In this document: in pieces, positions 11,932-34,581 of the stretch
How positions within the stretch are numbered: the stretch's first letter is position 1
Layout of the letters: the number at the start of each line of letters is the position of its first letter
From: a virus
Lineage: Duplodnaviria; Caudoviricetes
Direction: 5' to 3' (one strand)
DNA: 64,000 nt
Virus record (IMG/VR): IMGVR_UViG_3300014205_000212
Coordinates: 1-64,000 of that record
Translations under genes and position numbers: made by a program
Notes under the pieces: generated by a model
Databases searched by the model: none
Told to the model about the DNA's origin: nothing
Seen by the model: the letters and a program-made list of their open reading frames with translations, nothing else

Positions 11932-12174
11932 TTACGGCTGTGATATGCGATGTTTGGCGATTACGAGAACAAACCTATCAAAATACATAGAACGTGGACA
12001 ATACAATATTATGGAAACGATAAACTATTTATATGAATAAGAAAGAAAAAAGAATCCAAATTATCGCAATGCTTTACCAAAACATGGATAAAGTAGATGC
12101 AGATGAAACATTAAAACTTATTGATGAATTCAGCACTATGGCAGTAATAAATAATGCCGTATTACCGCATGTTA
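11932..12174 (+). repeat. attC-like site A0 (degenerate/chimeric; TTAC instead of TAAC; arms do not match)
   Basis: Right arm AATGCCGTATTACCGC-A-TGTTA is nearly identical to the right arm of site E0. Confidence 0.6.
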
Positions 12175-12293
12175 TAAACCGAAGGGAACTGTTAATTGAT
12201 TTTTCTATGAAAAGAAATAAAGCACCTGAAGAATTTAAGGCGCAATATGAGAAAGAAGTTGATGACTACTTAAAATCAATTAATAGTTTATAA
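12033..12293 (+). CDS. Cassette hypothetical protein (starts inside the A0 loop; stop is the TAA of TAAC)
   Basis: 86-aa ORF crossing GTTA in frame (NAVLPHVINR). Confidence 0.7.
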   Translation: MNKKEKRIQIIAMLYQNMDKVDADETLKLIDEFSTMAVINNAVLPHVINRRELLIDFSMKRNKAPEEFKAQYEKEVDDYLKSINSL

Positions 12294-12414
12294 CGGTTAC
12301 AAATATGAAACGGCAGGGATTACGTGCAAAACCCTATCAGCCGACTACAAATGATGAATAGTAGCACAAAGTATAAAATAAGCATTACGCCCTGCTGTTT
12401 TATATTTGATGTTA
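12291..12414 (+). repeat. attC-like hairpin A1 (124 bp)
   Basis: TAAC-GGTTA-CAAATATGAAACGGCAGGG...CCCTGCTGTTTTATATTTG-AT-GTTA; 19-bp stem with 2 G.T. Confidence 0.9.
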
Positions 12415-12435
12415 TGGTGCGTTTATTTTACTAAC

Positions 12436-12663
12436 ATGGTTGATTTTAACGGATTAGACACAAAAAAAAATGCTGTAAAACTTCAAGTAAAAACAGCAAC
12501 GATATTTATTTGGAAAGAAAGTAACTTAACTGCCCTTATTTCTGTTAGAGATAAAGATGGCAAAGCATTATGGCAAAAGGCGCATTGTGATGCTTCTGAC
12601 TTACCATTTGCTATTGAAGTTGCTAACAGAAATATACAGACTGGTATGTTTGAAACGGATTAA
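12436..12663 (+). CDS. Cassette hypothetical protein
   Basis: 75 aa from ATG 12436 within body 12411-12675. Confidence 0.65.
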   Translation: MVDFNGLDTKKNAVKLQVKTATIFIWKESNLTALISVRDKDGKALWQKAHCDASDLPFAIEVANRNIQTGMFETD

Positions 12664-12671
12664 ATGCACCA

Positions 12672-12759
12672 TAACGGTCGGCAATATGAAACGGTTGCCT
12701 TGTAAGACGTTTCAAATTTAGTAATAGCCTATCGGCAACTGTTTTTATATTGCTTGTTA
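12672..12759 (+). repeat. attC-like hairpin A2 (88 bp)
   Basis: GCAATATGAAACGGTTGCC/GGCAACTGTTTTTATATTGC. Confidence 0.9.
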
Positions 12760-12780
12760 GGCACAGTTAAATTTAAAACC

Positions 12781-12951
12781 ATGAAAAGAATAACTATTTG
12801 GTTAATGAAGCGCCAACTAAAAGCAGCAAAAAATTATCGTAATAATTTAGATAATAGTATTGTAATTAAAGCATATGACTACGTTATAAAGAATTACGAA
12901 GATACAATAATGTTTTTGCGTGCTGAACTTAAATCGAAGGCACGGTCTTAA
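12781..12951 (+). CDS. Cassette hypothetical protein
   Basis: 56 aa from ATG 12781 within body 12756-12962. Confidence 0.6.
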   Translation: MKRITIWLMKRQLKAAKNYRNNLDNSIVIKAYDYVIKNYEDTIMFLRAELKSKARS

Positions 12952-12958
12952 TTATGCC

Positions 12959-13084
12959 TAACGTTGATAATATGAAAAGTTGGGGGATTAAAAGAGCAAA
13001 AATATCGGGTCGCAACCGAAGCCTTGACGGTAGCTGGGAGGTAACATACACCGCTGCACCCCCAATTTTTTATATTATGTGTTA
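12959..13084 (+). repeat. attC-like hairpin A3 (126 bp)
   Basis: ATAATATGAAAAGTTGGGGG/CCCCCAATTTTTTATATTAT; 20-bp stem with 2 G.T. Confidence 0.9.
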
Positions 13085-13123
13085 GCAACTGGGCTTTATT
13101 TATAAACTTAAAACTAAATAAAA

Positions 13124-13330
13124 ATGGAAGTAAATGATTTAATAGACCTTAGATTCACTTCATCTACTAAGGGACCCATTCCTATCTCAAGAACTATAGA
13201 TGGGAAATTTGCCCTTATTAATGGAACATTCAGAGGTATAATTGACATAGGCTCTACTTGGAAATGTAGAATAGATAAAATAGAAAAGTTTAAAGTTATA
13301 ATAAGTCCAATATCATTACAGAAATTATAA
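13124..13330 (+). CDS. Hypothetical protein (TRAM-like beta-barrel possible)
   Basis: 68-aa ORF; PISRTIDGKFALI...GSTWKCRI...VII. Confidence 0.55.
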   Translation: MEVNDLIDLRFTSSTKGPIPISRTIDGKFALINGTFRGIIDIGSTWKCRIDKIEKFKVIISPISLQKL

Positions 13331-13354
13331 TAATAATTAATAAATTTCAATATT

Positions 13355-13747
13355 ATGGAAACAAAAAACAATGTATTAGTCGTTCTTAAATCTAAGTTAG
13401 ACTATAAAGAAAACAAATCAAATACAAGAGAGTTTACAAAAGAAGAGATAACTTTACTAAGAGAGTACTGTATCTCTTTAGATTACCATTTTTCAATTAA
13501 TAAGCAAAACAAGATAGTTAAGATATTCAATCCTATTACATTTAAATATGGATACCTTAAAGTTCTTAATAATGAGATATGCTATGGCTATTTCGTTAAA
13601 GAGAACGATAATTCTAAATTTATTGTAAAATATAATGTTCTCTTAGAGTTAAATAACTTTAAAAAAATAAAAGGTTATAATATAAGAGTAAATAGAATGA
13701 TCCAATCTGTTATGTTTGGTATATATGACTTAGAAATTTTAAAATAA
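13355..13747 (+). CDS. Hypothetical protein
   Basis: 130-aa ORF. Confidence 0.65.
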   Translation: METKNNVLVVLKSKLDYKENKSNTREFTKEEITLLREYCISLDYHFSINKQNKIVKIFNPITFKYGYLKVLNNEICYGYFVKENDNSKFIVKYNVLLELNNFKKIKGYNIRVNRMIQSVMFGIYDLEILK

Positions 13748-13755
13748 ATAGAATA

Positions 13756-14145
13756 ATGAAAAGAGATATTGATTGGAAAGGATTTCAAGAAAATGTAGAA
13801 ACCTATATTAAAAAAAATAGAGGCATAGGTGCAAAGTTTTTAAAAATATTATTCGATAATTATTCTACAAAGGGTATAAAAAATTTGAATATACAAAAAA
13901 CTGTAAAAAGTGATTTAGGTATTATTAGCGATAATACTTCTAACTTAGAAAATATTTTAGGAATGCTACACGAATTTAGGAATTGGAATAGGGAATGGGA
14001 TATTTACTTTGCAAAACACCCTAAAAATGTTGATGAGTTTGCAAAATTATTGTCAAAAAGATACAAAGTTAAACGTGTTAACGTTAATTATAAAAAATCG
14101 GTGAGGAGTTCGGAGCTACGGAACTATCAACTGATACAAAACTAA
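13756..14145 (+). CDS. Hypothetical protein reading into hairpin B0
   Basis: 129-aa ORF; the last ~22 codons are the left arm/loop of B0. Confidence 0.6.
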   Translation: MKRDIDWKGFQENVETYIKKNRGIGAKFLKILFDNYSTKGIKNLNIQKTVKSDLGIISDNTSNLENILGMLHEFRNWNREWDIYFAKHPKNVDEFAKLLSKRYKVKRVNVNYKKSVRSSELRNYQLIQN

Positions 14146-14203
14146 TTTAGTAGCAAGTGGTTTAAAATAAGCACGATACCCCACTGTTTTTTATAATGTG
14201 TTA
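14079..14203 (+). repeat. attC-like hairpin B0 (125 bp)
   Basis: TAAC-GTTA-ATTATAAAAAATCGGTGAGG...CCCCACTGTTTTTTATAAT-GT-GTTA. Confidence 0.8.
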
Positions 14204-14252
14204 TCGGCTGCCTTTTTAAAATTTAATTATTCACTTAAAAACTTAAATAACA

Positions 14253-14585
14253 ATGGAACAAATTAGAAATTCAGACCTTATCGAAGGTAAGACTATTGAA
14301 AGAACGGATTATTTAGATAATAAATTCTTTCTATTTTTTACAGACAATACCTTTTGTATAATATCAGGTTGTGGCTGGGATGAAAAAGATGTTGAATTTA
14401 ATGAAAATGAATTTGAAGTTGAACCTAATACAAGCAACTACGATGATCTTAAAAGTATTGGAATTATTGATGAAGCTACCTTCTTTAAATTTAAAGATCT
14501 TAAAGAACAAAATAGCAAAGAGTATAGAAAGCAACAAGACATTAAACAACTTAATGAATTACGCAAAAAGTATCCAGATGCGTAA
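14253..14585 (+). CDS. Cassette hypothetical protein
   Basis: 110-aa ORF after GTTATCGGCTG. Confidence 0.7.
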   Translation: MEQIRNSDLIEGKTIERTDYLDNKFFLFFTDNTFCIISGCGWDEKDVEFNENEFEVEPNTSNYDDLKSIGIIDEATFFKFKDLKEQNSKEYRKQQDIKQLNELRKKYPDA

Positions 14586-14666
14586 GGTTGCCGTATTAAA
14601 TACGAGAAATAAAATTTCAATTTACAACAAAACTACACGGGCAAAATGGCGTATGAGCCCGTGTTA
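14578..14666 (+). repeat. attC-like site B1, outer left arm deleted
   Basis: Remnant GATGCGTAAGGTTGCC; intact right arm GGCAAAATGGCGTATGAGCCCGTGTTA. Confidence 0.6.
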
Positions 14667-14701
14667 GCAGTTGTTTTTATTAATCTAAATATAAATTTAT
14701 T

Positions 14702-15079
14702 ATGAAATACGAAATTAAATATAAAGAACTTGAAAGTTATTTAACTTCTTTACCTGAAAAAGAATTTCAGGACAAAAAATATAATCCAAACGGAATTATT
14801 AAAGAGGCAGAATTGATGACAGATATTGACTTTTTTAAAAAAGATAAATCGAAATTCCCAATAAGTAAAGTTATTGATTACGGAATGCCATTTTTACTTG
14901 ATGCTTTAGGCAATGATTTATCTATATGTATTTTAACTAAAAGAAAATTTAAGCTACCAACTGGAAGACCAATACAAGCTAAATTAGACCGTACAATTAT
15001 ATCAAATTGTCGAAAAATATATGGAACACCTTTGAATGGATGCTGGGTAATACCTGAGCAGTTCGTGGTTTTAAAATAA
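14702..15079 (+). CDS. Cassette hypothetical protein
   Basis: 125-aa ORF filling body 14663-15087. Confidence 0.75.
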   Translation: MKYEIKYKELESYLTSLPEKEFQDKKYNPNGIIKEAELMTDIDFFKKDKSKFPISKVIDYGMPFLLDALGNDLSICILTKRKFKLPTGRPIQAKLDRTIISNCRKIYGTPLNGCWVIPEQFVVLK

Positions 15080-15083
15080 CTGC

Positions 15084-15207
15084 TAACCGTTGAAGCTATG
15101 ACCAGTAAAGGATTACGGAGCGATGCACTATCCACCGATACTAAGCTGGATGCGAGCTACAACGTTTGATTAACCACCACAACCTTTATTGGTTATAGCT
15201 TGTGTTA
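15084..15207 (+). repeat. attC-like hairpin B2 (124 bp)
   Basis: AAGCTATGACCAGTAAAGG/CCTTTATTGGTTATAGCTT; 2 G.T. Confidence 0.9.
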
Positions 15208-15253
15208 GTGCCAGTTATTTATTTGATTATCAATTTTTAAAAACAAAAATACA

Positions 15254-15820
15254 ATGAAGAAAATTAGCACACTTTACAAAAAAGACCCGAACGATTTAAG
15301 CAGGGTAATTAATGAAATTGCACCCGAAAATAAATGGGTAATTGATGGCGAAGGTATTCCGACACGCAAGTTTGATGGAACTGCAACCGCTATTATTGAT
15401 GGCGAATTATACAAACGATACGATGTTAAAAAAGGTAAGCAAGTGCCACTAAATGCGATACCATGCCAAGAGGCTGACGAAATTACAGGACACCACCCGC
15501 ATTGGATTAAATGCGACCGAAACAACCCAGCTGATAAATGGCATTTTGTTGGTTTTGATGCCTTAGAAAATAAAGAAGATGGAACTTATGAACTTTGTGG
15601 CGAAAAATTACAAGGCAACCCAGAACATTTAACTGGACACATTTTAGTTAAACACGGAATAGAAGTATTACCAGTAACCGACTTTTCATTTGAAGGAATA
15701 AAAAACTACTTATCAAATTCTGAATTAGATATTGAGGGTATTGTTTTTCATCATAAAAACGATGGGCGTATGTGCAAAATTCGCAAATGCGATTTCGGTA
15801 TCAAGCGGGCTGTTTTATAA
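15254..15820 (+). CDS. Cassette-borne RNA ligase-like nucleotidyltransferase (DUF5565/RLIG1-like)
   Basis: Motif I TRKFDGT, YELCG, motif IV EGIVFHH, motif V CKIR. Confidence 0.7.
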   Translation: MKKISTLYKKDPNDLSRVINEIAPENKWVIDGEGIPTRKFDGTATAIIDGELYKRYDVKKGKQVPLNAIPCQEADEITGHHPHWIKCDRNNPADKWHFVGFDALENKEDGTYELCGEKLQGNPEHLTGHILVKHGIEVLPVTDFSFEGIKNYLSNSELDIEGIVFHHKNDGRMCKIRKCDFGIKRAVL

Positions 15821-15827
15821 TTGGCAC

Positions 15828-15951
15828 TAACGGATTATATATGCGTTCGGTTGCTGACGCAAAACAGCACCAACTTAATTTAAAAAACAAAAGTAAAATG
15901 AAAGCACAAGACAACAAAAAAGAGAAAGCAACTGACGTATATACGTTGTTA
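15828..15951 (+). repeat. attC-like hairpin B3 (124 bp) containing a start codon
   Basis: TATATGCGTTCGGTTGCT/AGCAACTGACGTATATA; ATG at 15898 in the loop. Confidence 0.9.
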
Positions 15952-16107
15952 CCTGCCGTTTTAGATGAGATCATTGAATACATTGAAGATACTGAACAAA
16001 CCATTGATGGTGAATGGGGTTCGTGTAGAGACTTGAAAGAGTTGATTAGAGATAAACAAATGCCTGAATTATATGATAAGTTAATTGCTTTGAGAAATGG
16101 CAGGTAA
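15898..16107 (+). CDS. Cassette hypothetical protein (starts in the B3 loop; stop is the TAA of TAAC)
   Basis: 69 aa, MKAQDNKKEKATDVYTLLPAVLDE... Confidence 0.7.
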   Translation: MKAQDNKKEKATDVYTLLPAVLDEIIEYIEDTEQTIDGEWGSCRDLKELIRDKQMPELYDKLIALRNGR

Positions 16108-16141
16108 CTCACTTATATATACAGTTCAAAATATTGAAGTA
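16105..16141 (-). other. attI-like array-terminal site T1
   Basis: + strand TAACTCACTTATATATACAGTTCAAAATATTGAAGTA; homologous to T2 and T3. Confidence 0.7.
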
Positions 16142-16392
16142 TGCCAAAACTAATAGAATCGGTAGATATAAAAAATAGAATAATAGAACTGATTAATAAT
16201 AATAATTTATTTATTAATGATGAACTTCAAATTTTTGAAGCACTTATTAATAAATATAAACCTATATCCATTTCTAATTGTTCTAATCTTTTAGGAAAAA
16301 AATATAACTCTATAAAGTATATGGTTAACCATAATTCTTTACCTTTTATTTCTATTAATAATAGTAAACATATTTTAAAATCTTTAATATAA
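16141..16392 (+). CDS. Small HTH protein (excisionase/MerR-like HTH suspected)
   Basis: ISISNCSNLLGKKYNSIKYMVNHNSLPFISINNSKHIL. Confidence 0.5.
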   Translation: MPKLIESVDIKNRIIELINNNNLFINDELQIFEALINKYKPISISNCSNLLGKKYNSIKYMVNHNSLPFISINNSKHILKSLI

Positions 16393-16396
16393 TTAT

Positions 16397-16858
16397 ATGG
16401 AAATTTTAAATTTAATTTTGATAGGAGTAATATCAAGTGGTATTACTCTTATGTATCAAAGAGGATTTTTTCCGGGAATGATATTTCATTCTTGGTTTAG
16501 ATGGTTAATAATGACAAAGTATGAAATATTAGCTAAAATATTAGGCAAATGTCATTATTGTAATGGATTCTGGATAAATATTATTATAACCTTTTTATTT
16601 ACTCATAACTGGCTTTATTTCATCATAACTTCAGGTTCTTGGTATTTATGTACAGTTATCGTTTCTAATGTAATAGAATGTATTTATGTGCCAATAATAT
16701 ATAAATCAGCCTTAGATTGGTGGAACAGTTTAAATATATTCGAAAAAAGTAATTTAACTGAAAAATATAAAATTAATGTTCCTGATAATGGATTAAAAGG
16801 AATAAATCAATATATAATACAAGGAATAGCAAATAAAGAAAAAATATTAATAAAATAA
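16397..16858 (+). CDS. Membrane protein, DUF1360-like
   Basis: Hydrophobic helices and LGKCHYCNGFW. Confidence 0.55.
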   Translation: MEILNLILIGVISSGITLMYQRGFFPGMIFHSWFRWLIMTKYEILAKILGKCHYCNGFWINIIITFLFTHNWLYFIITSGSWYLCTVIVSNVIECIYVPIIYKSALDWWNSLNIFEKSNLTEKYKINVPDNGLKGINQYIIQGIANKEKILIK

Positions 16859-16877
16859 TAATATAATTAATTTAATT

Positions 16878-17159
16878 ATGAATTACGAAGAATATTTACA
16901 AAAAGGGAAAGAACTCGAATCAGAATTTGAGAATAAGAAAACAGAATTAATGAAAGAATTTGTAAAGGCAAATAATCCTTATAAAATTGGTGACAAAATA
17001 ACAGACCATATTGGCTCAATAATTATTGAAAAAATGGGGTTTGCGTGGGGTTTCGGTAATAAGCCATGTGCCACATATACAGGTTTAGAACTTAAAAAAG
17101 ATGGCACTCCAACTAAAAAAGAATCACGTAGACAAGTGTGGCAGTCAAATATTGTCTAA
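16878..17159 (+). CDS. Hypothetical protein, probable eroded cassette gene
   Basis: 93 aa; stop is the TAA of TAAC at site C0. Confidence 0.7.
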   Translation: MNYEEYLQKGKELESEFENKKTELMKEFVKANNPYKIGDKITDHIGSIIIEKMGFAWGFGNKPCATYTGLELKKDGTPTKKESRRQVWQSNIV

Positions 17160-17168
17160 CATATGTTA
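17157..17168 (+). repeat. Collapsed attC-like site C0
   Basis: TAAC-ATAT-GTTA: both boxes present with the interior deleted, followed by CCGCCAG like other body starts. Confidence 0.6.
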
Positions 17169-17207
17169 CCGCCAGTTTTTATTTATTAATCTTAATATCA
17201 AAACTAT

Positions 17208-17813
17208 ATGAAATCATGGAAAGAACCTACAAAAGAAAGATGGGGAATGGATTATCGTCCCGGAATTACAGAAGAATTTTCACAACTAATTAAATTAGCT
17301 AAAGAAAAGATTGAGCCATTTTCATATAAAGAAATTTCAAGATATACTTATTACTTTAAAGTAAAAGGTGAGGAAATTTCGAGTGAATTTGATTGCTGCG
17401 ATGATGAAAAATGTATCAAAGAAGCCAAAAAAGCTATAAGAAAACAATACGGGAAAAATACGCATATTGAAGAATGTTATTCGGATAATGACGAAGACCA
17501 TGAGAGTATTGAAATATGTAGTATTTGTGGAAAACCTATGAATGAATATCTTACTTGGTGTAATTCAGAATTAGAGTACTTAGAAGAAAATAAACCTTGG
17601 GACGCTCAATTTTTAGCTGATGAAGGTTTTGTAATTGGCGTTATTTTAGATAGTACTCCAACTATGGATTGTAATATTTCAGATTATGCAAAATATCAAA
17701 AAGGCGAAACACTTCAAAAGGCATTACAATCAAGAGAAGAATTTTTTCAAAGAATCGGTAAATTAGCTCAATCAGTAATTGATGCAGACTTCGCTGTCTT
17801 AAATGGACGGTAA
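17208..17813 (+). CDS. Cassette hypothetical protein (acidic, Cys motifs)
   Basis: 201 aa; stop is the TAA of TAAC. Confidence 0.8.
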   Translation: MKSWKEPTKERWGMDYRPGITEEFSQLIKLAKEKIEPFSYKEISRYTYYFKVKGEEISSEFDCCDDEKCIKEAKKAIRKQYGKNTHIEECYSDNDEDHESIEICSICGKPMNEYLTWCNSELEYLEENKPWDAQFLADEGFVIGVILDSTPTMDCNISDYAKYQKGETLQKALQSREEFFQRIGKLAQSVIDADFAVLNGR

Positions 17814-17934
17814 CGGTGAAGCTATGACCAGTAAAGGAATGCGGGCTTCGTGCCTGTCAAAATAGTAGAAACTTAATAGAAAATACAAAATGAAAATTAA
17901 CGCAGAAACCCCCAATTGCATAAACATATTGTTA
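17811..17934 (+). repeat. Chimeric attC-like site C1 (124 bp)
   Basis: Left arm shares 21 identical bp with B2; right arm CCCCCAATTGCATAAACATATTGTTA is not its complement. Confidence 0.75.
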
Positions 17935-18360
17935 TATGCTGCTTTTTCTTCTATTCCATTAGATATTGAAGGTTCAAATTTAGAAAATACTGGTTGGATT
18001 CCTTCCGAAAATGATAAAAAGTATATGGATGGAAAAAACTATTTACTTGCTATTGAAGAAGCTAATTCCAAAAATGCTAAAGTAATATTTAAAAATGTAT
18101 CTCTACAATGGGATAGTTGTGATTGCGGAGATTATTATGGTTGTTCGCATGGGAATTATGTTTATGATATTGACATAATAAATGAAAATAAAAAAATTAA
18201 CATAGAATATACCGATGGAGATTCTCTGGAATTTTATAACAATGGGAAGTCCTGTAAGATTCCAACAGCAGGAGCAACTATTTTTGATTTTATAAGAATG
18301 TGTCAAATTTGTGAAATTGAATTAGAGCTAACAGATTACGCAGAAACTCTTTTAAAGTAG
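17890..18360 (+). CDS. Cassette hypothetical protein (starts in the C1 loop)
   Basis: 156 aa, MKINAETPNCINILLYAA... Confidence 0.75.
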   Translation: MKINAETPNCINILLYAAFSSIPLDIEGSNLENTGWIPSENDKKYMDGKNYLLAIEEANSKNAKVIFKNVSLQWDSCDCGDYYGCSHGNYVYDIDIINENKKINIEYTDGDSLEFYNNGKSCKIPTAGATIFDFIRMCQICEIELELTDYAETLLK

Positions 18361-18393
18361 CATATAATTTATTTATATGTGCATAAAAAGTAA

Positions 18394-18401
18394 TACTTTT
18401 G
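18394..18401 (+). promoter_or_regulatory. Bacteroidota -7 promoter element
   Basis: TACTTTTG(CA) matches TAnnTTTG; no clear -33 TTTG. Confidence 0.4.
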
Positions 18402-20060: not shown

Positions 20061-20464
20061 TAGAAGAAGAAGCATTAGAAGAAATAATAAAGTTAGCAAA
20101 TGGTACATCAGACCCTGCTACAATAAAGGCTTATTATAAACAACAATTCTTTAATGGAAAGAAGATGCTATTTGATGGTACTATCATTACAGCACTACTT
20201 ATATTAGAAAAATACAAGGCTTACACAGATTATTGGGATTCTTCATTTGGAAATAAAAATCCTCAATATATAAAATCTGTAGATAAAAAAATGTCTATTT
20301 CTGATTTCTTAGTAAAAGGAGAATATAATAAAACATTTATTCTTCCGGCAAGAAATAGAGATATATATCTATTTGGTACTAATAGTCTTAATGAACTTAA
20401 AGTAAAATTAATTAATTTTAATAAAAGACTTAATGAAAGAAAGAACACTTCCCGAGGGAACTAA
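20057..20464 (+). CDS. Hypothetical protein upstream of the helicase
   Basis: 135-aa ORF overlapping both neighbours. Confidence 0.7.
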   Translation: MIEEEALEEIIKLANGTSDPATIKAYYKQQFFNGKKMLFDGTIITALLILEKYKAYTDYWDSSFGNKNPQYIKSVDKKMSISDFLVKGEYNKTFILPARNRDIYLFGTNSLNELKVKLINFNKRLNERKNTSRGN

Positions 20465-21815
20465 AATACCACCTCATGATTTAAGAATAGAAGAAACTAT
20501 ATTAGGTCAGTTAATGATAGAAGTAAATAAAAATACTATTAATGCTATTAGCATCATTAATGAAGATGATTTTTATAAAGAATCACATAAATTAATTTAT
20601 AGAACAATATCTTTATTATATAAACGAGATAATGTTTGTAATTTCATTATTGTATGTCATGAATTAATGAAGATTCAAGCATTAGAAATAGTAGGTGGTA
20701 GTTATATTATAAGTACTTTATCTTCTAATGTATCTTCTACTTTAAATGTTATTTATCATGCAAGAATTCTTAAACAGTTATCAATTGCTAGAAAATTAAT
20801 TGCTATTTCATATAATGTTCAAACTTCTGTATATGAAATGAAAGATGTAAAAGAGATAATAGATACTTTAAATAAAGACATTAATAATATCTATAAAGAT
20901 GTTGATAAAGAAGATTCTATTGTCTTAGCTTCTAAAGTATCTGATGAATTAATGAAAGATTTATTAAATGATAATTTTGTATTAAATAAAAAGAATACAG
21001 GATTTAAAATTTTAGATAAAATAATTGGTATTACATTAAATAAAATATTATTAGTTGCTGGTCCTGCAAAACATGGGAAAAGTAAGTTTATAAGTATGAT
21101 AATGATGAATATTTTAGAAAAATATTCTGATGTAAGTATATTTTGGATTACATTAGAAGATTCTGCTAAAGATATCATTGCCGGTTATATTGCTTCTAAA
21201 ATTTTAATTACTCCTAAAGACATCATTGAAAGAACATATTCTAAAGACTGTAATTCTATTATTAAACCTCATATAGAGAAGTTTAAAACCTTTGATATAG
21301 AATTCCAAGAAAAAAGTGCTAAAGTGTCTCAATTTGGCATTAAATTCATTGAATTCTGTAAAATGCGAAAAGGAAGATTTAATATTTTAATAATTGATAA
21401 TATGCTTTCATTATCTGATAAAGATGATTTTAAAGGTAATGATAATGGAATGTATGATTATATTATGCTTCAGTTATTAAATATTAAACAAAGGACTAAT
21501 GCTTTAATAATTCCTATTCATCATTATAGAGATGCTCAACAAGCAGAAGGAAAGATAGAAAGTGCATATAGACCAAGATTAATAGACATGAAAGGAACAG
21601 AAGCTTTTAGAAGAGTTCCTAATCAAGTATTACTATTAAATAATCCGGGAAAATATAAAGATTTAGTTATAGAATATAAAGGTCATAAAGACTTACTAAA
21701 GAGTATCTTTATATGTGATACTGGTGCTAATAGGAATGCTTCCGATGATGATGATAGTGCTTTAATAAGATTCTTTCACACACTAGAATTTAATATTTTT
21801 GAAGAAATAAATTAA
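20433..21815 (+). CDS. dnaB: DnaB-like replicative helicase
   Basis: N-terminal PPHDLRIEETILGQLM...EDDFYKESHKLIY, Walker A AGPAKHGKS, LIIDN, RPRLIDMKGT. Confidence 0.9.
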   Translation: MKERTLPEGTKIPPHDLRIEETILGQLMIEVNKNTINAISIINEDDFYKESHKLIYRTISLLYKRDNVCNFIIVCHELMKIQALEIVGGSYIISTLSSNVSSTLNVIYHARILKQLSIARKLIAISYNVQTSVYEMKDVKEIIDTLNKDINNIYKDVDKEDSIVLASKVSDELMKDLLNDNFVLNKKNTGFKILDKIIGITLNKILLVAGPAKHGKSKFISMIMMNILEKYSDVSIFWITLEDSAKDIIAGYIASKILITPKDIIERTYSKDCNSIIKPHIEKFKTFDIEFQEKSAKVSQFGIKFIEFCKMRKGRFNILIIDNMLSLSDKDDFKGNDNGMYDYIMLQLLNIKQRTNALIIPIHHYRDAQQAEGKIESAYRPRLIDMKGTEAFRRVPNQVLLLNNPGKYKDLVIEYKGHKDLLKSIFICDTGANRNASDDDDSALIRFFHTLEFNIFEEIN

Positions 21816-21839
21816 CGGTGAGCGTATGAAATCGTGTTA
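21813..21839 (+). repeat. Collapsed attC-like site D0 (27 bp)
   Basis: TAACGGTGAGCGTATGAAATC-GT-GTTA: left arm start joined to the last bases of a right arm. Confidence 0.7.
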
Positions 21840-21882
21840 GTTGCAGCCTTTTATTTAGTAATTAATTTTTAAAAACAAAAAT

Positions 21883-22230
21883 ATGAAAGTAACATTAAAC
21901 ATTGAAAACGATGCCGAAATGAGAGCATACGTTAAAGATTGCATTAAAGGACAAGTATTGTCAATTGTTCGTGAAGAAATGCAAGAAATGATTAAAGAAG
22001 AGTTGAACCGAAAAATAAAAGGGTTGAACGATTCCAATTTTCAGCGGATATTTACAGATGCGATGGTGAAGAATGTAAAAGACATTTTACAAGCAAATCA
22101 CAATGTGAAAAGCTGGGATAATAATTGGATTAAACCTATTATAGCTTCTTTAATGGAGCAATATGTAAAGCAAAACGAATCGTTAATTAATCAACTTGCA
22201 AAAGAGAAGGTTAAGTTGCTGGTTGGTTAG
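21883..22230 (+). CDS. Cassette hypothetical protein
   Basis: 115 aa filling body 21836-22242. Confidence 0.75.
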   Translation: MKVTLNIENDAEMRAYVKDCIKGQVLSIVREEMQEMIKEELNRKIKGLNDSNFQRIFTDAMVKNVKDILQANHNVKSWDNNWIKPIIASLMEQYVKQNESLINQLAKEKVKLLVG

Positions 22231-22238
22231 GTTGCAAC

Positions 22239-22444
22239 TAACGGCTGCGGGTGTGACATCGGTTTTTTTGCGGATTAACAACTAAAATTTAAAAATATGG
22301 TACAGATAGTAGAACAGACAAAGGAAGAAAAAATGGCAATGTATATGAAATTGTCTAAGAAGCAAATAGCAGAAATGCTTATTAATTGCAATAACATTAT
22401 AACAGCACTAACGCAAGCAAAAAACTGTGTTATACCTGCTGTTA
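22239..22444 (+). repeat. attC-like hairpin D1 (206 bp; loop encodes ~40 codons)
   Basis: GCGGGTGTGACATCGGTTTTTT/AAAAAACTGTGTTATACCTGC; 4 G.T. Confidence 0.85.
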
Positions 22445-22549: not shown

Positions 22550-22671
22550 TAATGGCTGCGGGTTTGAAATGTAAGGGATTTCAGAACGCTTCCGTATCAC
22601 ACGAGATAAATTAACTTAGTAGTAACCAGCTTTACAACAGATAAAACCCTTATATTTTAAACCCGTTGTTA
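22550..22671 (+). repeat. attC-like hairpin D2 (122 bp; TAAT variant)
   Basis: CGGGTTTGAAATGTAAGGG/CCCTTATATTTTAAACCCG; 2 G.T. Confidence 0.88.
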
Positions 22672-22863: not shown

Positions 22864-22988
22864 TAACGGTTCGTGTATGACCCGTTTGGGATTAAATAGT
22901 ACAAACTTTCAAAATGGAACAAATGAATATAAATGACTTAGACTTTCAGCAAACTACCGAACCCCAAATGGGTTATGACACGGTGTTA
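22864..22988 (+). repeat. attC-like hairpin D3 (125 bp) containing a start codon
   Basis: CGTGTATGACCCGTTTGGG/CCCAAATGGGTTATGACACG; one bulged G on the 3' arm. Confidence 0.88.
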
Positions 22989-23156: not shown

Positions 23157-23190
23157 CTCGTTTATATGTATAGTTCAAAAAAATGAAGTA
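23154..23190 (-). other. attI-like array-terminal site T2
   Basis: + strand TAACTCGTTTATATGTATAGTTCAAAAAAATGAAGTA; partial inverted partner at 23242-23258. Confidence 0.75.
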
Positions 23191-23302
23191 GTCTATATAT
23201 TAAATAGTTATATGTTTTATTGTATTCATTTTATATAATTATACTTCAATTTATTGAAATAATAGTAAATTAATAAATAATAGTAAACTAATAAATAATA
23301 AA

Positions 23303-28068: not shown

Positions 28069-28080
28069 TAAATTAAAATT

Positions 28081-29221: not shown

Positions 29222-29418
29222 AAGTTGCAAGTGTATTAGCTACAAATGCAACTTTTGATGAAGTAAAAGTTAATCCTGCAAATAATGTACAGGAAGAAGA
29301 TGATATGTATGAAGAAATAAGTAAAAATGAATATAGATTTAAAGGTATTTTTCAAAATATATTTAATATTCATTATGATTATTATTATAATATTTTAATT
29401 GCCCATAATTATGAATAA
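29200..29418 (+). CDS. Hypothetical protein
   Basis: 72 aa. Confidence 0.6.
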   Translation: MVKINPVEVASVLATNATFDEVKVNPANNVQEEDDMYEEISKNEYRFKGIFQNIFNIHYDYYYNILIAHNYE

Positions 29419-29501
29419 TTCTAAATTTTAAATAGTAATTAATTGTATAGAATAAATATCTTATTTTAAAAGAATTGTTTGTTTAATTAAATAATTGTCA
29501 T

Positions 29502-30122
29502 ATGAAAATGTTAAAAGAAATAGCTGAAAATTATTCAGCACTAAATTACAACTCTGATAACTATTTTATAGGAGGAGGTTTAGATGGCTCAAAATTCGCT
29601 TCTAATCGGCACGAGGATGCACGTAATGATTCAGGAAAGCTTACACTTGGGGAATTAACTGCACTTCTCAAGAAGGTCACAAAAATAGACATAGATGTTA
29701 TAAAGTCTGTAATTAATTACGCAGTGCCTAACATGGAATGGCATCATGCCGGGAAATTGCCAAAACAATACGGTGGAGGCATGAAGAAGACATATTTTTT
29801 AAATGCAAAAGAAATTTGTGATATTGCAACTAATTTCGAAGATTATAAAAATAAAGTTGAAATTGCAATTGTTACTAAAAAGGCTGAGGCAGAGGCACAA
29901 AATACATTAGTCCAACGTCAATTAGACTACCTTAAAGGAAATGCCACTAAATTTAGCAGAGTGTCAAATTTACCTCAATTTTACACAATTACTGAAAGCG
30001 AAATGAACGGTAAATATGGGTGGTTTGATGCTTCCGGAAAGTCGTATAGTTTACCGATATATTACTCCGGTTGGGAATTTAAAAATCAAGAAGATTTAAA
30101 TAACTATCACTTAATTCGTTAA
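29502..30122 (+). CDS. Hypothetical protein (GC-richer than flanks)
   Basis: 206-aa ORF with EWHHAG motif. Confidence 0.75.
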   Translation: MKMLKEIAENYSALNYNSDNYFIGGGLDGSKFASNRHEDARNDSGKLTLGELTALLKKVTKIDIDVIKSVINYAVPNMEWHHAGKLPKQYGGGMKKTYFLNAKEICDIATNFEDYKNKVEIAIVTKKAEAEAQNTLVQRQLDYLKGNATKFSRVSNLPQFYTITESEMNGKYGWFDASGKSYSLPIYYSGWEFKNQEDLNNYHLIR

Positions 30123-30283
30123 TATGAAAGTTACTGTGACTTATATCAAAGTAATCAAGAAAGTTATAAAAGCGAAAGACAACGCAGAACTTTTAATACT
30201 TATTGATGAAAAGTGCCCTAAAGGTTATATTTTACAAAAATTTTAATTTTATAATTTAGTAATAATTTTTAAAACGAAATAAA

Positions 30284-30724
30284 ATGAAAAATACTATTGA
30301 TAAATTAAAATTGAAAAAATATCATTCTAAAATAATAAAAGCTAAAATAATAACTAGTAAAAATGCATACGATTATATTAGACAGTTTTACTTTGATGAT
30401 ATAGATATTTATGAAAGTGTTTTTATATTACTCATAGATGCCTCTAATACAACAATAGGATATGCTAAAATAAGTCAAGGAGGAGTTATAGGAACAGTTA
30501 TAGATGTTAAGTTAATATGTAAATATGTTATAGATAGTTTAGCGATGGGAGTTATATTAGCTCATAACCATCCTACAGGTAACCTTAAAGCAAGTGATTC
30601 TGATATGCAAATAACATCTAAAGTAAAAGATGCTTTAAATATCTTTGATTGTAAATTATTAGATCATATTATACTTAGTTCTAATAAATATTTATCCATG
30701 GCAGATGAAGGAATTTTAATTTAA
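30284..30724 (+). CDS. RadC-like JAB/MPN domain protein
   Basis: ESVFILL...ISQGGVIGTVID...AHNHPTG...SDSD...LLDHII. Confidence 0.9.
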   Translation: MKNTIDKLKLKKYHSKIIKAKIITSKNAYDYIRQFYFDDIDIYESVFILLIDASNTTIGYAKISQGGVIGTVIDVKLICKYVIDSLAMGVILAHNHPTGNLKASDSDMQITSKVKDALNIFDCKLLDHIILSSNKYLSMADEGILI

Positions 30725-30730
30725 AATATT

Positions 30731-30958
30731 ATGAAAAATAAATATGTTTATTATATAATGGAAACTGATATATGGCAATCAAATTATTCAGAAACTCTAT
30801 TTGGTATTTATGATGATTATGATATAACTTTTAAAGAGTTTAATAAATTATCAGAATTTTATAATAAAGAAAATATTAATGGAGATATTATTATGTATTA
30901 TACTATTATAAATCAAAAACATGAATCTATAAAAATTATGTCTAAATCTGGTAATTAA
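30731..30958 (+). CDS. Hypothetical protein
   Basis: 75 aa. Confidence 0.6.
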   Translation: MKNKYVYYIMETDIWQSNYSETLFGIYDDYDITFKEFNKLSEFYNKENINGDIIMYYTIINQKHESIKIMSKSGN

Positions 30959-31188
30959 TGAATAAAGAAGAAAAAGAATTATTTATAAATAATTTTATAA
31001 ATAGTATAAAAGAAGATTTATTATCTAAATTAGATTCTATTCCTGAAAATTGGGATGGATTTGAATTAAGACATTATATTAATATTAAATTCGAACAAGA
31101 AAATTTATGGAAAAGAAAAATATTAAGTAATACAGATAAAATAAGAAAACAAAGATGTCTTAATGATATTTATAATAATGGGTTGTAG
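30958..31188 (+). CDS. Hypothetical protein
   Basis: 76 aa, TAATG coupling. Confidence 0.6.
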   Translation: MNKEEKELFINNFINSIKEDLLSKLDSIPENWDGFELRHYINIKFEQENLWKRKILSNTDKIRKQRCLNDIYNNGL

Positions 31189-31393
31189 TGTATTAAATTG
31201 GAGTAGGGAGTTACATAATAAAAAAGTAACTCCTGACCGTAATGATGGTAAAATAACAGTTAAAATACCAAATGGATATATCACATTTTCCACTGAAGAA
31301 GAAAAACAAGATTGGCTTAAAAGATATTTAAATAAACAAATTGTTGAAAATAAACCTTTAAAATTTAATCGTTATAAAAAAAGAAATAAATGA
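31163..31393 (+). CDS. Hypothetical protein (start uncertain)
   Basis: 76 aa. Confidence 0.5.
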   Translation: MIFIIMGCSVLNWSRELHNKKVTPDRNDGKITVKIPNGYITFSTEEEKQDWLKRYLNKQIVENKPLKFNRYKKRNK

Positions 31394-31815
31394 AAGCAGA
31401 AGAATATAAAGACATTTTAAATCATTATATGTATCGTTTTAAATTAGAACATACAGATGAATATCATAATTATATAAAATTAAAATATTTCTATACAAAA
31501 AATTCAGAAATTACAGTAGATAATATTATAAAACTTGTATGTGAAGGAGAGAAAGTAGATATAGAAGATATGAAAAGAACCGGAAGAAATAGAAATTTAA
31601 ATATTCAACCTAGACAAATAGCTTCTTATCTTATTACTAAACACATTAAAGGACTTACATTAGAATCAATAGGTAAAGCTTTAAGAAATGAACCTTTAGA
31701 TCATGCAACAGTTATTCATGCTAATAAAACTATTAATAATCTTATAGATACAGATAAGAGAATGAAAAATAAATTAATTCATTATGAAGACATCATTAAA
31801 GCTTGGAAAGAATGA
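31390..31815 (+). CDS. Protein with DnaA C-terminal (domain IV) HTH
   Basis: RQIASYL...TLESIGKAL...DHATVIHANKTI matches the DnaA domain IV signature. Confidence 0.8.
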   Translation: MKAEEYKDILNHYMYRFKLEHTDEYHNYIKLKYFYTKNSEITVDNIIKLVCEGEKVDIEDMKRTGRNRNLNIQPRQIASYLITKHIKGLTLESIGKALRNEPLDHATVIHANKTINNLIDTDKRMKNKLIHYEDIIKAWKE

Positions 31816-32468
31816 CAGAGATAGAAAAGTTCTTTAAAGATACATATGTTAGAAATACACCTATAATAGAATATCTAAGAGAAGCTACAAGAAATAAATT
31901 AGCATATTTTATTCCTCTTAATACACCATCATTAAAAAATAGTAAACAGATACAACAGATATTTACTAAGAATTCTACTTGCTGTCATTCTAGAGGTGGA
32001 TTGGTTATTAAAACATCTACAGGAGGATTAATTTGTTCTCATTGTCAACAACCTTGTGGAAGACATACAAGACCTATTTTAAATGCTTCAGATGGCGTAC
32101 AGGAATATGAAAAAAATATATTACCTTTTGTAAATGTCTTTAAAGGTATATTTAAAGAATGGAAAGTAGGAAAGACAGAACCTTTAGTTATGTGTTTTTA
32201 TTTTATAAGAAACCAATATAGAGATTTTGATTATGGAAACGCTTCTGAGGTACTTTTAGATATGTTTAAAGACCAAACTGATAAGAAGACTAAAGAAGTT
32301 ATACCGAGATTAATTACTGATGATTGTATGCGTTTTGTAAAACCTTTCTTTCTAGGTTGTCATTATTCACAAGATAAACCTGGTACTATCATTACTTTAC
32401 TTACAAAAGAACTACTTGAAATATATAGTAAAGTATATTTAGATTATAAACCTAATACATTATTCTAA
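31803..32468 (+). CDS. RusA-like Holliday junction resolvase with a zinc-ribbon insertion
   Basis: IPLNTPSLKNSK, FYFIR...DFDYGN...DM...ITDD; inserted CC...CSHC. Confidence 0.6.
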   Translation: MERMTEIEKFFKDTYVRNTPIIEYLREATRNKLAYFIPLNTPSLKNSKQIQQIFTKNSTCCHSRGGLVIKTSTGGLICSHCQQPCGRHTRPILNASDGVQEYEKNILPFVNVFKGIFKEWKVGKTEPLVMCFYFIRNQYRDFDYGNASEVLLDMFKDQTDKKTKEVIPRLITDDCMRFVKPFFLGCHYSQDKPGTIITLLTKELLEIYSKVYLDYKPNTLF

Positions 32469-32740
32469 TGAAAACATATAAACCAATAACTAAAAAAATA
32501 ATAATAGATATATTAACCGATGTAGAACATTATAATCAAAGTCCATTAAATTTAATAATTAATGGATATAATATTGATGAAAATATCACTTGTAGAAAAA
32601 TATGTGTTAAAAAAGGTAGAATAGAATATTTCTATTATAAAGATTCTCCTGAAAGTATGGAAAGATTTAAAATGTTACTTAACCAAATATTAAATAGAAA
32701 TGAAAAAAGTAAGTATAGTAATAGTATCAAGAATGTATAA
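32468..32740 (+). CDS. Hypothetical protein
   Basis: 90 aa. Confidence 0.6.
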   Translation: MKTYKPITKKIIIDILTDVEHYNQSPLNLIINGYNIDENITCRKICVKKGRIEYFYYKDSPESMERFKMLLNQILNRNEKSKYSNSIKNV

Positions 32741-32888
32741 TGTAATACATGAAGATGATTTATCTGAAACAGGAATATTAAGATTAGCAGAAAACAACTT
32801 TGATAATGAAATTAACCTATTAACTTCTAATTTAGAAGATGGTGATTTTGCTTATGAAATAAAAAGTACTAACGATTATAAAGTTTGA
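32700..32888 (+). CDS. Hypothetical protein
   Basis: 62 aa. Confidence 0.55.
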   Translation: MKKVSIVIVSRMYNVIHEDDLSETGILRLAENNFDNEINLLTSNLEDGDFAYEIKSTNDYKV

Positions 32889-32889
32889 T

Positions 32890-33225
32890 ATGGAACAGTC
32901 ATTTATAGAAAAAAGAATTGCAAGTAAAGCAACTGAAAGAGTAGATAAAGATTATAGAGAATTTATAGATTTTTGTAATAAAAATCCTTTTGCTAAACAA
33001 ATACAAATTAAAGTAAATAATATAAATATTTTTTTAACTGGTAATAATTATAATAATCAAGAATTATTTTCTCCTCATAATACAAATAATAAAAATAATG
33101 ATTTTACCAACTATATAGATATATTCAATAAGCTTCAAAAAAAATATGAAAAAGAAGAAACAGAAATTTTACTTGATAAATTAGATAGTGTAAAATATTT
33201 ATTTGATAACTTAAATAACATATAA
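32890..33225 (+). CDS. Hypothetical protein
   Basis: 111 aa. Confidence 0.65.
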   Translation: MEQSFIEKRIASKATERVDKDYREFIDFCNKNPFAKQIQIKVNNINIFLTGNNYNNQELFSPHNTNNKNNDFTNYIDIFNKLQKKYEKEETEILLDKLDSVKYLFDNLNNI

Positions 33226-33230
33226 TTAAT

Positions 33231-33596
33231 ATGCAAAAACATACAGAAATATATTTAAATCATTTTCATCTTCATCAAGGAGAAGTTATAGTAAGTGAGA
33301 TATCCGGAACTACCAATGGTATAAACATTCATCATTTAGATTCTAAAAAGATGGGTGGTAGTGATACTAAAGATTATATAGAGAATCTATGTGCTATTAC
33401 CATTACAGAACATGAGTTATGCCATAGATATAAAGAATATAATGAATATGTAAAGAAGATACATGAATTATTCTTAACTATTAATCCTTATTCTTATCCT
33501 CATCTCTTTCTTGATAATACAATTTATAAAAAATATCAAAAAGATTTATATCAGATACTTAAAGAATGTGGACATTATAAAAAATATAGTAAATGA
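33231..33596 (+). CDS. HNH endonuclease-like protein
   Basis: NIHHLDSKKMGG...IENLCAITITEHELCH. Confidence 0.7.
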   Translation: MQKHTEIYLNHFHLHQGEVIVSEISGTTNGINIHHLDSKKMGGSDTKDYIENLCAITITEHELCHRYKEYNEYVKKIHELFLTINPYSYPHLFLDNTIYKKYQKDLYQILKECGHYKKYSK

Positions 33597-33611
33597 ATAT
33601 AGATAATAATG

Positions 33612-33739
33612 TAACGGCTGGCGGTATGCGGTCGTTGCCGAACTATCAAATTAGTAATAACTTAAATACGAGAACAAAATTATGAATACAGAAAAAAGTA
33701 TCAACGAAGCGGAAGGCAATGCCGTATTACCGCTTGTTA
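33612..33739 (+). repeat. attC-like hairpin E0 (128 bp) containing a start codon
   Basis: GCGGTATGCGGTCGTTGCC/GGCAATGCCGTATTACCGC; ATG at 33682. Confidence 0.85.
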
Positions 33740-34050
33740 CCACCCGTTTTTTATTGCTCAGTCTGAAATGGACTAACAAAAAAGATAAGTGGTTTACGTT
33801 TTGGCGTGAAAATTCAGCAGGGTATTGCTGGTTCAAAGAATGGTGTGGACTTTATGATATTGAAAAAGCAAGAGAAACGCACGGACACGACAATACTATT
33901 ATGGTTGATGGATTCCTTATTAAACACCTTTGGAAAGAAATTGAATACGAAGGTAAAAAACGTGAAATACTTCCAAATACGGAAGAGGTGCGTAAATTTT
34001 TATCTATTCAACTTCGAGATTTAAAAGCATTGCACCGCACTACTCATTAA
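33682..34050 (+). CDS. Cassette hypothetical protein (starts in the E0 loop)
   Basis: 122 aa, MNTEKSINEAEGNAVLPLVTTRF... Confidence 0.75.
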   Translation: MNTEKSINEAEGNAVLPLVTTRFLLLSLKWTNKKDKWFTFWRENSAGYCWFKEWCGLYDIEKARETHGHDNTIMVDGFLIKHLWKEIEYEGKKREILPNTEEVRKFLSIQLRDLKALHRTTH

Positions 34051-34058
34051 ATGGGTGG

Positions 34059-34148
34059 TAACGTTTTGCGTATATACGAGGTACGCCTTAACGATGAATT
34101 TTAAATTACAACAAACGCTTATAGGCGTATCTTGTATATACGCTGTTA
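34059..34148 (+). repeat. attC-like hairpin E1 (90 bp)
   Basis: GCGTATATACGAGGTACGCCT/AGGCGTATCTTGTATATACGC; 21-bp stem with 2 G.T. Confidence 0.9.
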
Positions 34149-34163
34149 GCACCAGTACGGATT

Positions 34164-34430
34164 ATGAGAACTGAACTAAATTTATATGATGACAAATTAA
34201 AACAAGCAATACTTGATTTGCCATACAATACAAAGATTGATGATAATGGTGTTGATTGCGATATGGTTTTCATCCCTGAAAGTGATTATGGATTTGCTGA
34301 AATATACAGAATGTACGATGATATTTTAGTTTTTTTAATCCCAACTTACGGAGGAACACCATCATTGCAATATCACGTTAGTAGACACGCTATTGATTAT
34401 CTGATTTCTGAATTGAAAAAGATAACGTAG
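34164..34430 (+). CDS. Cassette hypothetical protein
   Basis: 88 aa filling body 34145-34443. Confidence 0.75.
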   Translation: MRTELNLYDDKLKQAILDLPYNTKIDDNGVDCDMVFIPESDYGFAEIYRMYDDILVFLIPTYGGTPSLQYHVSRHAIDYLISELKKIT

Positions 34431-34439
34431 TATTGGTGC

Positions 34440-34476
34440 TAACTAGTTTATATATATAGTTCAAAAAAATGAAGTA
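34440..34476 (-). other. attI-like array-terminal site T3
   Basis: + strand TAACTAGTTTATATATATAGTTCAAAAAAATGAAGTA; perfect 21-bp inverted partner at 34536-34556. Confidence 0.75.
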
Positions 34477-34581
34477 ATAGATTTATTAAGGCTTTCAACT
34501 TAGTTTTTATAATTATTTTTATACCTATTATATTTTATTACTTCATTTTTTTGAACCTTTTAATAAAAATAAAAAAATTAA

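Follow-up and report, generated by a model that had tools for sequence, protein, structure and literature searches.

The window analysed here is the first 64 kb of a linear, 74,106-bp IMG/VR virus record (IMGVR_UViG_3300014205_000212; CheckV completeness 39%), and it carries five arrays in which hairpin sites bounded by TAAC and GTTA alternate with small gene bodies. These arrays are most probably integrase-less, integron-type cassette arrays, i.e., they resemble clusters of attC sites lacking an integrase (CALINs), and they are built on an attC-like site family specific to Bacteroidota. A preliminary description of this DNA had read it as an integron-like system of cassette capture and shuffling, and that reading is now supported by the conserved structure of the sites, the pairing of each body with its own end, breakpoints at the core tetramers, an exact indel and arrays of the same kind in bacterial chromosomes.

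Each site consists of TAAC, an unpaired spacer of 4-5 nucleotides (nt; mostly GTT or GGT), an arm of ~19 bp, a loop, the second arm, a spacer of 1-3 nt and GTTA, and the sites fall into two length classes of ~84-93 nt (88 nt in the window) and ~120-129 nt (~124 nt in the window). The bare pattern TAAC-N(10-40)-GTTA occurs 51 times in the window compared with 49 times expected, which is chance level, and the signal is therefore the pairing of the arms and not the two tetramers. The sequence of the arms is free while their pairing is kept, with one or two G·T wobbles at fixed places and, in some sites, a bulged T beside the wobble (TCG opposite CA). In alignment A2, which comprises 28 sites of the long class, taken from the window and from 16 further loci of 14 records, and whose structure was read by eye, 95.5% of the cells are paired, compared with 65% in shuffles and 37-49% with the partner slid, a percentage that is inflated by a site detector that rewards pairing; the covariation score (0.716 versus 0.144 in shuffles, reached by none of 500 shuffles) and the fixed wobble are not affected by this detector. 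Compensatory changes are found in 17 of the 19 arm pairs. TAAC, GTTA and one G·U (G·T) pair are invariant in all 28 sites, and a second G·U pair, five positions away, is present in 17. The strand with the wobble folds better in 60 of 67 sites with DNA parameters and in 54 of 67 with RNA parameters, the orientation of the sites having been chosen in part by the same folding criterion.

The covariance model R1, which was built from A2, identifies 11 sites in the window (E <4e-6), only two of which belonged to the training set; all of them are on the + strand and within the arrays, and R1 has no match elsewhere in the 64-kb window on either strand. In other viral loci R1 has 86 matches in 457 kb. 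Of the 16 sites in five arrays counted in the preliminary description, 11 are thus recovered by R1, while the remaining five are short, degenerate or hybrid junctions seen by eye only. The loops share motifs, i.e., GGATT.. after the left arm, CTATC or TTTCAA in mid-loop and CAC-AAAC before the right arm (A2 columns 36-110; window examples at 12320-12385 and 15115-15180), and the loops of the long class often hold the leader and the start codon of the next gene. A promoter, a leader and a second protein-binding site are possibilities for these loops, and no convincing match to the Bacteroidota promoter TAnnTTTG was seen by eye in the leaders. A small peptide encoded in the hairpin was also considered and dropped, as its frame is broken in several copies and is not the same from site to site.

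The gene bodies start with GTTA-N6-G and end with T-N6'-TAAC. A script that looked for GTTA plus N6 (at least three G/C in N6) and the exact reverse complement within 100-900 nt finds nine perfect 10/10 bodies of the form GTTA+N6...N6'+TAAC in the window, all between 12.4 and 34.5 kb, compared with a mean of 0.04 and a maximum of one in 200 dinucleotide shuffles and with at most two when any other 4-mer is used in place of GTTA; the preliminary description had likewise counted nine perfect bodies. Four further bodies (12024-12294, 12756-12962, 17156-17815 and 17932-18367) have ends that match at 7-9 of 10 positions. Among 28 bodies from several records, own-end complementarity averages 5.0/7, versus 2.95 between the two sides of a single site and 2.7 between ends paired at random, and at least 6/7 positions pair in 36% of the bodies but in 1.8% of random pairs, which confirms that a body ends with the reverse complement of its own start and not of its neighbour's. 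The pairing of the body ends spans 11-15 bp and has at positions 10-11 an irregularity like that of the site arms (CAG/CAA, TCG/CA or CTGG/CAAG), where the start of the body carries G and its end T. When read outward, the R' box is TA-N4-CWG and the L'' box is TATG-N4-G, both of which fit TA-N6-G, and we infer that the two boxes may form a pseudo-twofold core site of the two-monomer type used by tyrosine recombinases. The features of the five arrays are as follows, with scores given for matches to R1 and open reading frames abbreviated as ORFs.

11932-12030, +: degenerate first junction of array 1, TTAC for TAAC; left arm good, right arm decayed; seen by eye, no R1 match
12024-12294, +: body with ORF 12033-12293; ends 7/10
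12291-12414, +: attC-like hairpin, long class, 124 nt; 94.6 bits, E 2e-17
12411-12675, +: body with perfect 10/10 ends GTTATGGTGC; body script
12672-12759, +: attC-like hairpin, short class, 88 nt; 40.9 bits; 78% identical to a site of phage G004
12756-12962, +: body with 8/10 ends GTTAGGCAC
12959-13084, +: attC-like hairpin; 80.3 bits
14079-14203, +: attC-like hairpin opening array 2; 72.2 bits; left arm overlaps the end of backbone ORF 13756-14145
14586-14666, +: atypical junction, TAAG for TAAC, two small hairpins; seen by eye, no R1 match
14663-15087, +: body with perfect ends GTTAGCAGTT and ORF 14702-15079; body script
15084-15207, +: attC-like hairpin of a family found in 12 other viral and two metagenome-assembled genome (MAG) contigs; 91.5 bits
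15204-15831, +: body with perfect ends GTTAGTGCCA and RNA-ligase-like gene 15254-15820 (Pfam RLIG1); body script
15828-15951, +: attC-like hairpin, whose loop contains the start of the following body's ORF (ATG 15899); 51 bits
15948-16108, +: body with perfect ends GTTACCTGCC, last of array 2; body script
16109-16145, +: conserved backbone motif right after the last TAAC; candidate attI-like platform
17148-17159, +: minimal junction TAAC-ATAT-GTTA, no hairpin; seen by eye
17156-17815, +: body with 8/10 ends GTTACCGCCA and ORF 17208-17813
17811-17934, +: hybrid site; ORF 17890-18360 starts in its loop; 46.7 bits; two separate sequence matches
17932-18367, +: body ending with TAAT for TAAC, then a degenerate end motif
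21813-21839, +: short remnant of a junction with no more than the left arm; the helicase stop codon overlaps its TAAC
21836-22242, +: body with perfect ends GTTAGTTGCA and ORF 21883-22230; body script
22239-22290 (about), +: truncated junction, TAAC and left arm, no matching right arm
22550-22671, +: attC-like hairpin, TAAT for TAAC; 64.1 bits
22668-22867, +: body with perfect ends GTTAGGCACA; body script
22864-22988, +: attC-like hairpin; 84.5 bits
22985-23157, +: body with perfect ends GTTATCGGCA, last of array 4; body script
23158-23195, +: conserved end motif that forms the left arm of an inverted repeat in the backbone; candidate attI-like platform
33612-33739, +: attC-like hairpin; ORF 33682-34050 starts in its loop; 49.1 bits
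33736-34062, +: body with perfect ends GTTACCACCC; body script
34059-34148, +: attC-like hairpin, short class; 52 bits
34145-34443, +: body with perfect ends GTTAGCACCA, last of array 5; body script
34444-34571, +: conserved end motif and its 36-nt inverted repeat (34444-34479 / 34536-34571)

The hybrid site at 17811-17934 combines the left arm and early loop of the 15084 family with the late loop and right arm of a family seen in G004, and by its sequence it looks like the result of a deletion or an exchange inside two loops with a common conserved motif.

Comparison of contigs indicates that the cassettes move. The site family recurs in at least 20 unrelated viral contigs. The 21-nt left arm of the site at 15084 has exact copies in 12 further IMG/VR contigs and two MAG contigs from Bacteroidota, and the whole ~124-nt hairpin of this family, which is the only nucleotide similarity among these contigs, is 77-94% identical across them; by BLAST against 301 Flavobacteriaceae genomes, the family is found only in a 12-kb MAG contig. 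Sequence search misses sites that are found by the structure model. The body at 15204-15831 shares 96% protein and 91% DNA identity with a body of another locus (L018), in an alignment that starts at GTGTTAG and ends at CTAACGG, and the hairpins on both of its flanks are unrelated. RNA-ligase homologues were found at 49 viral loci, about a dozen of which, including the closest (L018), are in a GTTA...TAAC frame, and most of the more distant ones are in ordinary contexts with no frame. Homologous cassettes occur in other contexts, as the preliminary description had required: the RNA-ligase body is found in at least 10 of them, with borders at GTTA and TAAC and with homology confined to the body in nearly all pairwise comparisons. 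Between loci L033 and L063 homology spans the upstream hairpin and the body, from TAAC to TAAC. In diverged homologues the N6 differs between frames and both ends change together, and the same frame can enclose a different gene.

One exact indel is seen in the 72-kb phage G005, whose contig ends overlap and give two readings, X-A-Y-B-Z and X-B-Z, A and B being hairpins (contig ends compared: L023:1-1450 and L026:11760-12079). At the level of the assembly graph, the two differ by exactly 1209 bp that comprise hairpin A and body Y and are bounded by TAAC. From PCQ-type motifs read by eye, body Y is predicted to encode a cytosine-5 DNA methyltransferase, and the neighbouring body X also resembles a DNA methyltransferase. 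In two related phages (L034 and L047), an RNA-ligase gene is found outside any array together with a remnant of the 3' tail of its cassette at ~3055-3090 (...GCGTATAAC in L047, mostly deleted in L034), and these genes look like fossil cassettes fixed in the phage backbones.

The same sites are found in bacterial chromosomes. The preliminary description had proposed a covariance-model search of Bacteroidota genomes and phage contigs, and, in addition to the viral loci given above, R1 matches 82 of 151 Bacteroidota genomes, a sample drawn from across the phylum of a Lutibacter MAG, with E down to 1e-19 and with matches often clustered on megabase contigs. Four chromosomal clusters were examined, among them G178:C12:206290-228369, G424:C1:120548-147645 and G315:C1:47384-58984 (loci L094-L100), and at least 28 sites are spread over 20 kb in the array of G178. 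The chromosomal bodies follow the same end rule (10 of 11 positions identical, G versus A at position 11). After the last cassette of the chromosomal arrays a tyrosine recombinase of 346-355 amino acids is encoded. The three array-adjacent recombinases are 60-72% identical to each other and score 216-248 bits against NF040815 ("site-specific tyrosine recombinase/integron integrase"; cut-off 220), and their best relatives in PDB are the archaeal XerA, followed by VchIntIA. This recombinase family (E <=1e-70) is present in 48 of the 151 genomes; sites are found in 40 of the 48 genomes with the recombinase versus 42 of the 103 without it, a comparison which assumes that the two 151-genome samples, matched by their shared handles, are identical. 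In at least 21 genomes a listed site is within 15 kb of the recombinase gene, which in most of them follows the array end that is 3' on the model strand and in at least two (G312 and G367) is on the opposite side of the listed sites. Sequence homology is plain between one phage site (L050:1794) and the chromosomal sites of G178. In G424 the cassette nearest the integrase carries a gene for a retron-type reverse transcriptase (L099:12047-12883), and a type I restriction-modification system is located between the integrase and the array of G315 (L100:4616-10641), which suggests that defence genes are present in host arrays.

Gene polarity differs between the two kinds of array. In the chromosomal arrays the longest ORF runs against the model strand in 31 of the 38 bodies (31 versus 7), and if the wobble strand is the recombined strand, this is the arrangement of a canonical integron, in which the ORF comes before its own attC and opposite to the recombined strand and most cassettes have no promoter. 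In the phages this order is not found and the polarity is reversed: all 11 R1 sites of the window and all listed cassette ORFs are on the + strand, and 33 of 35 sites at the RNA-ligase loci are on the strand of the gene. As the phage gene is on the G·T wobble strand, the site precedes its own gene in gene-sense coordinates, an order that fits the G005 indel, the unit common to L033 and L063, the start codons in the loops and a crossover at TAA|C. Three arrays of the window end with TAAC and a conserved motif that forms one arm of an inverted repeat in the backbone, and the end of the G178 array beside the integrase is similar, with TAAC, TAATATATAGG and then an inverted repeat. The conserved motif is a weak candidate for an attI-like platform, its likeness to the end of the G178 array being one of A/T-rich sequence.

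Several observations weigh against an integron-type interpretation of the phage arrays. No tyrosine recombinase, serine recombinase or Y1 transposase (PF00589, PF00239 and PF01797) was found in the 74-kb record, which is a fragment, and no PF00589 tyrosine recombinase was found in the complete array-bearing phages G004 and G005. The chromosomal recombinases score 203-221 bits against TIGR02249 (integron integrase), below its cut-off of 265, and align with it in two stretches that skip profile positions ~180-254, the place of the IntI-specific insertion; by sequence they are not canonical IntI and lack the insertion that is essential in known integrons. In canonical attC an unpaired central spacer and extrahelical bases on the R''/L'' arm set the choice of strand. 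The asymmetric spacer (4-5 versus 1-3 nt) of the sites described here, their fixed G·T wobbles and the bulged T of some of them are placed differently with respect to the inferred cleavage, the extra unpaired bases being on the same arm as that cleavage. Hairpins and bodies also assort more freely than a strict rule of one gene with its own attC predicts: the body common to 15204-15831 and L018 has different hairpins at both of its ends, and members of one hairpin family are bordered at either end by different R boxes. To these points must be added the inflated percentage of paired cells in A2. The preliminary description had named IntI tyrosine recombinases as the enzymes that recombine integron attC sites. 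The phage record encodes no integrase, and the recombinase beside the chromosomal arrays is integron-integrase-like but not a canonical IntI.

By our own model R1, at least two attC-like sites are found close together with no integrase nearby, which is the arrangement of a CALIN, and a complete integron, i.e., an intI with the IntI insertion, attI and an array, was not found. As the phage record encodes no recombinase, its arrays are CALIN-like and probably depend on a host enzyme, for which an IntI/XerA-like recombinase acting on phage DNA is the likely candidate. We propose that, during infection, a host recombinase of the array-adjacent family would fold and exchange single strands at TAA|C and that the moving unit would be the hairpin with its downstream body. 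Since the body ends are complementary, in the free circle GTTA-N6-G and T-N6'-TAAC would close the hairpin into one long bipartite stem, and the motif after the last TAAC of the three arrays may serve as a phage-borne attI-like entry site. The cassettes would supply accessory or counter-defence genes; the RNA ligase of the window and the DNA methyltransferases of G005 look, by sequence, like the latter. Phage and host thus appear to draw on one cassette-shuffling system. Whether Bacteroidota and their virulent phages share an unrecognised class of integron is, in our judgement, an evenly balanced question. In such a class the integrase would be without the insertion, attC would be marked by G·T and the R boxes would be long and self-complementary, while hosts would stock at least some defence cassettes and phages would borrow the enzyme with arrays of reverse polarity on several attI-like platforms.

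Other explanations of the hairpins have been considered. They could be composite terminator/promoter stem-loops similar to the promoter early stem-loop (PeSL) elements of T4-type phages, with the genes being shuffled by homologous recombination between co-infecting phages. Conserved A/T-rich motifs and start codons are present in the loops and in the leaders that follow GTTA, which makes an additional role of the elements in expression very likely; some pairs have the hairpin and leader in common but differ in the gene, and PeSL-mediated shuffling with mini-circles is documented (PMC2839356; PMC4122927). However, TAAC(G) and (T)GTTA are all that neighbouring sites have in common, too little for homologous recombination to act on, and the breakpoints are exactly at these tetramers and not inside a shared sequence, whereas PeSL are sequence-conserved motifs within which exchange takes place. 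Homologous recombination at such elements also leaves unexplained both the complementary, co-varying ends of the bodies and the chromosomal arrays beside a tyrosine recombinase, and we regard this explanation as improbable.

Slightly less probable still is that the structures act in RNA only, in processing or stability, with the G·U pairs as recognition marks, the paired ends protecting the mRNA and the borders resulting from selection. The phage wobbles are indeed all G·U on the sense strand, which is also the strand that folds better, and genes start inside the loops; in chromosomes, however, most genes are on the opposite strand, so that the wobble strand is mostly antisense there, and neither the recombinase adjoining the arrays nor the nucleotide-exact breakpoints and indel are expected of an RNA element. 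No Rfam family matches at the gathering threshold, and matches with E up to 5 were only noise. It is most unlikely that the hairpins or bodies are small non-autonomous transposons, such as miniature inverted-repeat transposable elements, repetitive extragenic palindromic elements or relatives of the insertion sequences IS200/IS605 that are moved by a single-strand HUH transposase. Hairpin-rich repeats dispersed over unrelated genomes would be in keeping with such elements, and conserved tetranucleotide borders are reminiscent of the target and cleavage sites of IS608. Nevertheless, the record has no Y1_Tnp, target-site duplications are not found, and terminal inverted repeats that differ between copies and match within a copy are not a property of transposons, while the organisation in arrays and the adjacent tyrosine recombinase fit integrons. 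Integrase-less, integron-type cassette arrays remain the interpretation that we prefer.

The array islands of the window have a G+C content (GC) of ~0.35-0.39 with plentiful CpG, while the backbone around them has a GC of ~0.24 and nearly no CpG, in agreement with the earlier remark that the cassettes are richer in G/C and CG. Another G+C- and CpG-rich island at 29502-30250 (ORFs 29502-30122 and 30124-30246) is without recognisable sites or matched ends and may be an older acquisition with decayed borders. The phage is present in two metagenomes, one from groundwater and one from landfill. No close relatives of the window phage were found in INPHARED, IMG/VR or the metagenome scan, no PHROGs match was found for nine large ORFs of the window, and no match was found among PDB sequences for the first 5000 residues of an ORF of 5514 amino acids (45963-62507, - strand); neither this ORF nor its large neighbours had a match in these searches, and the phage is very divergent. 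The crAss-like identity given in the preliminary description is thus not confirmed by these PHROG and PDB sequence searches of the large ORFs. Neither tRNA nor tmRNA genes were detected, and RLIG1 is the only Pfam or PHROG family found among the cassette proteins. The window record (G000), G004 and G005 have almost no proteins in common, and a shared phage-encoded enzyme was rejected on this ground. A RadC-like JAB protein (30284-30724), a DnaA C-terminal helix-turn-helix protein (31390-31815) and a DnaB-like helicase (20433-21815) of the window backbone are 31-49% identical to their counterparts in G005, and they are the only proteins common to the window phage and this otherwise unrelated array-bearing phage.

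Integrons have been thought rare or absent in Bacteroidota, yet one site family is found in more than half of a phylum-wide sample. The IntegronFinder 2.0 survey reports for Bacteroidetes only empty integrases and one Salinibacter integron, and reviews count Bacteroidota among the phyla with integrons. A full-text literature search found no paper describing this site family of Bacteroidota and phages, and standard integron finders appear to miss it, almost none being reported in the phylum. A system of this kind would explain the spread of small accessory genes among unrelated phages of Bacteroidota, including a putatively crAss-like one. If true, the integron would be a battlefield of defence and counter-defence common to host and phage, and a prediction is that the host recombinase acts on phage DNA during infection. 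It would also be a natural experiment in attC recognition, in which wobbled G·T pairs take over from extrahelical bases and the integrase has no IntI insertion.

The arrays described here resemble sedentary chromosomal integrons in having tandem small cassettes, imperfect hairpins on the scale of 57-141 nt with AAC...GTT cores, a structure that is conserved while its sequence varies, sites that resemble each other within one array and first bases of the cassette that are complementary to its own inverse core; in Bacteroidota chromosomes, they also have a tyrosine recombinase at one array end and defence genes among the cassettes. They are unlike integrons in that the paired R box is 10-15 bp instead of 7, that fixed G·T wobbles with or without a bulged T take the place of the classical extrahelical bases, and that the phages have no integrase, several arrays per genome, reversed polarity and start codons in the loops. 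In CTX-phi, Xer recombinases act on a folded single-stranded attP, and in the pdif modules of Acinetobacter plasmids the bounding sites alternate in orientation. Likewise, a forked single-strand hairpin could here be the substrate of a Xer-like enzyme that has no IntI insertion, and modules bounded by alternating sites are a further likeness, but no dif-like 11-6-11 site is evident and the spacing of the boxes differs.

Among phages, integrase-less attC clusters have been reported in virulent phages, with 17 in 10,705 genomes (Qi et al., 2023; PMC9892861), and the novelty suggested in the preliminary description has to be narrowed accordingly to this site family and this scale. The published phage CALINs, found with proteobacterial attC models, have 2-4 predicted sites each; six sites were put to the test, and IntI1 recombined five of them (PMC9892861). 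Both there and here the clusters are without an integrase and are found in lytic phages, one of them with a Bacteroidota host (Polaribacter), and DNA methyltransferase cassettes are found there as well as in G005. Whereas those clusters are sporadic, the 11-16 sites here are in five arrays of one phage, the family is tied to a chromosomal system of Bacteroidota, and comparison of contigs gives evidence of cassette movement by exact exchange. The closest analogue that is confined to phages is the PeSL system, in which small accessory genes in hyperplastic regions are also flanked by stem-loops with expression signals and are gained, lost or replaced at these motifs (PMC2839356; PMC4122927). PeSL are conserved in sequence and are thought to act via homologous recombination; in the arrays described here the arms are not conserved in sequence, the ends of each body are self-complementary and a dedicated recombinase family is found in host chromosomes.

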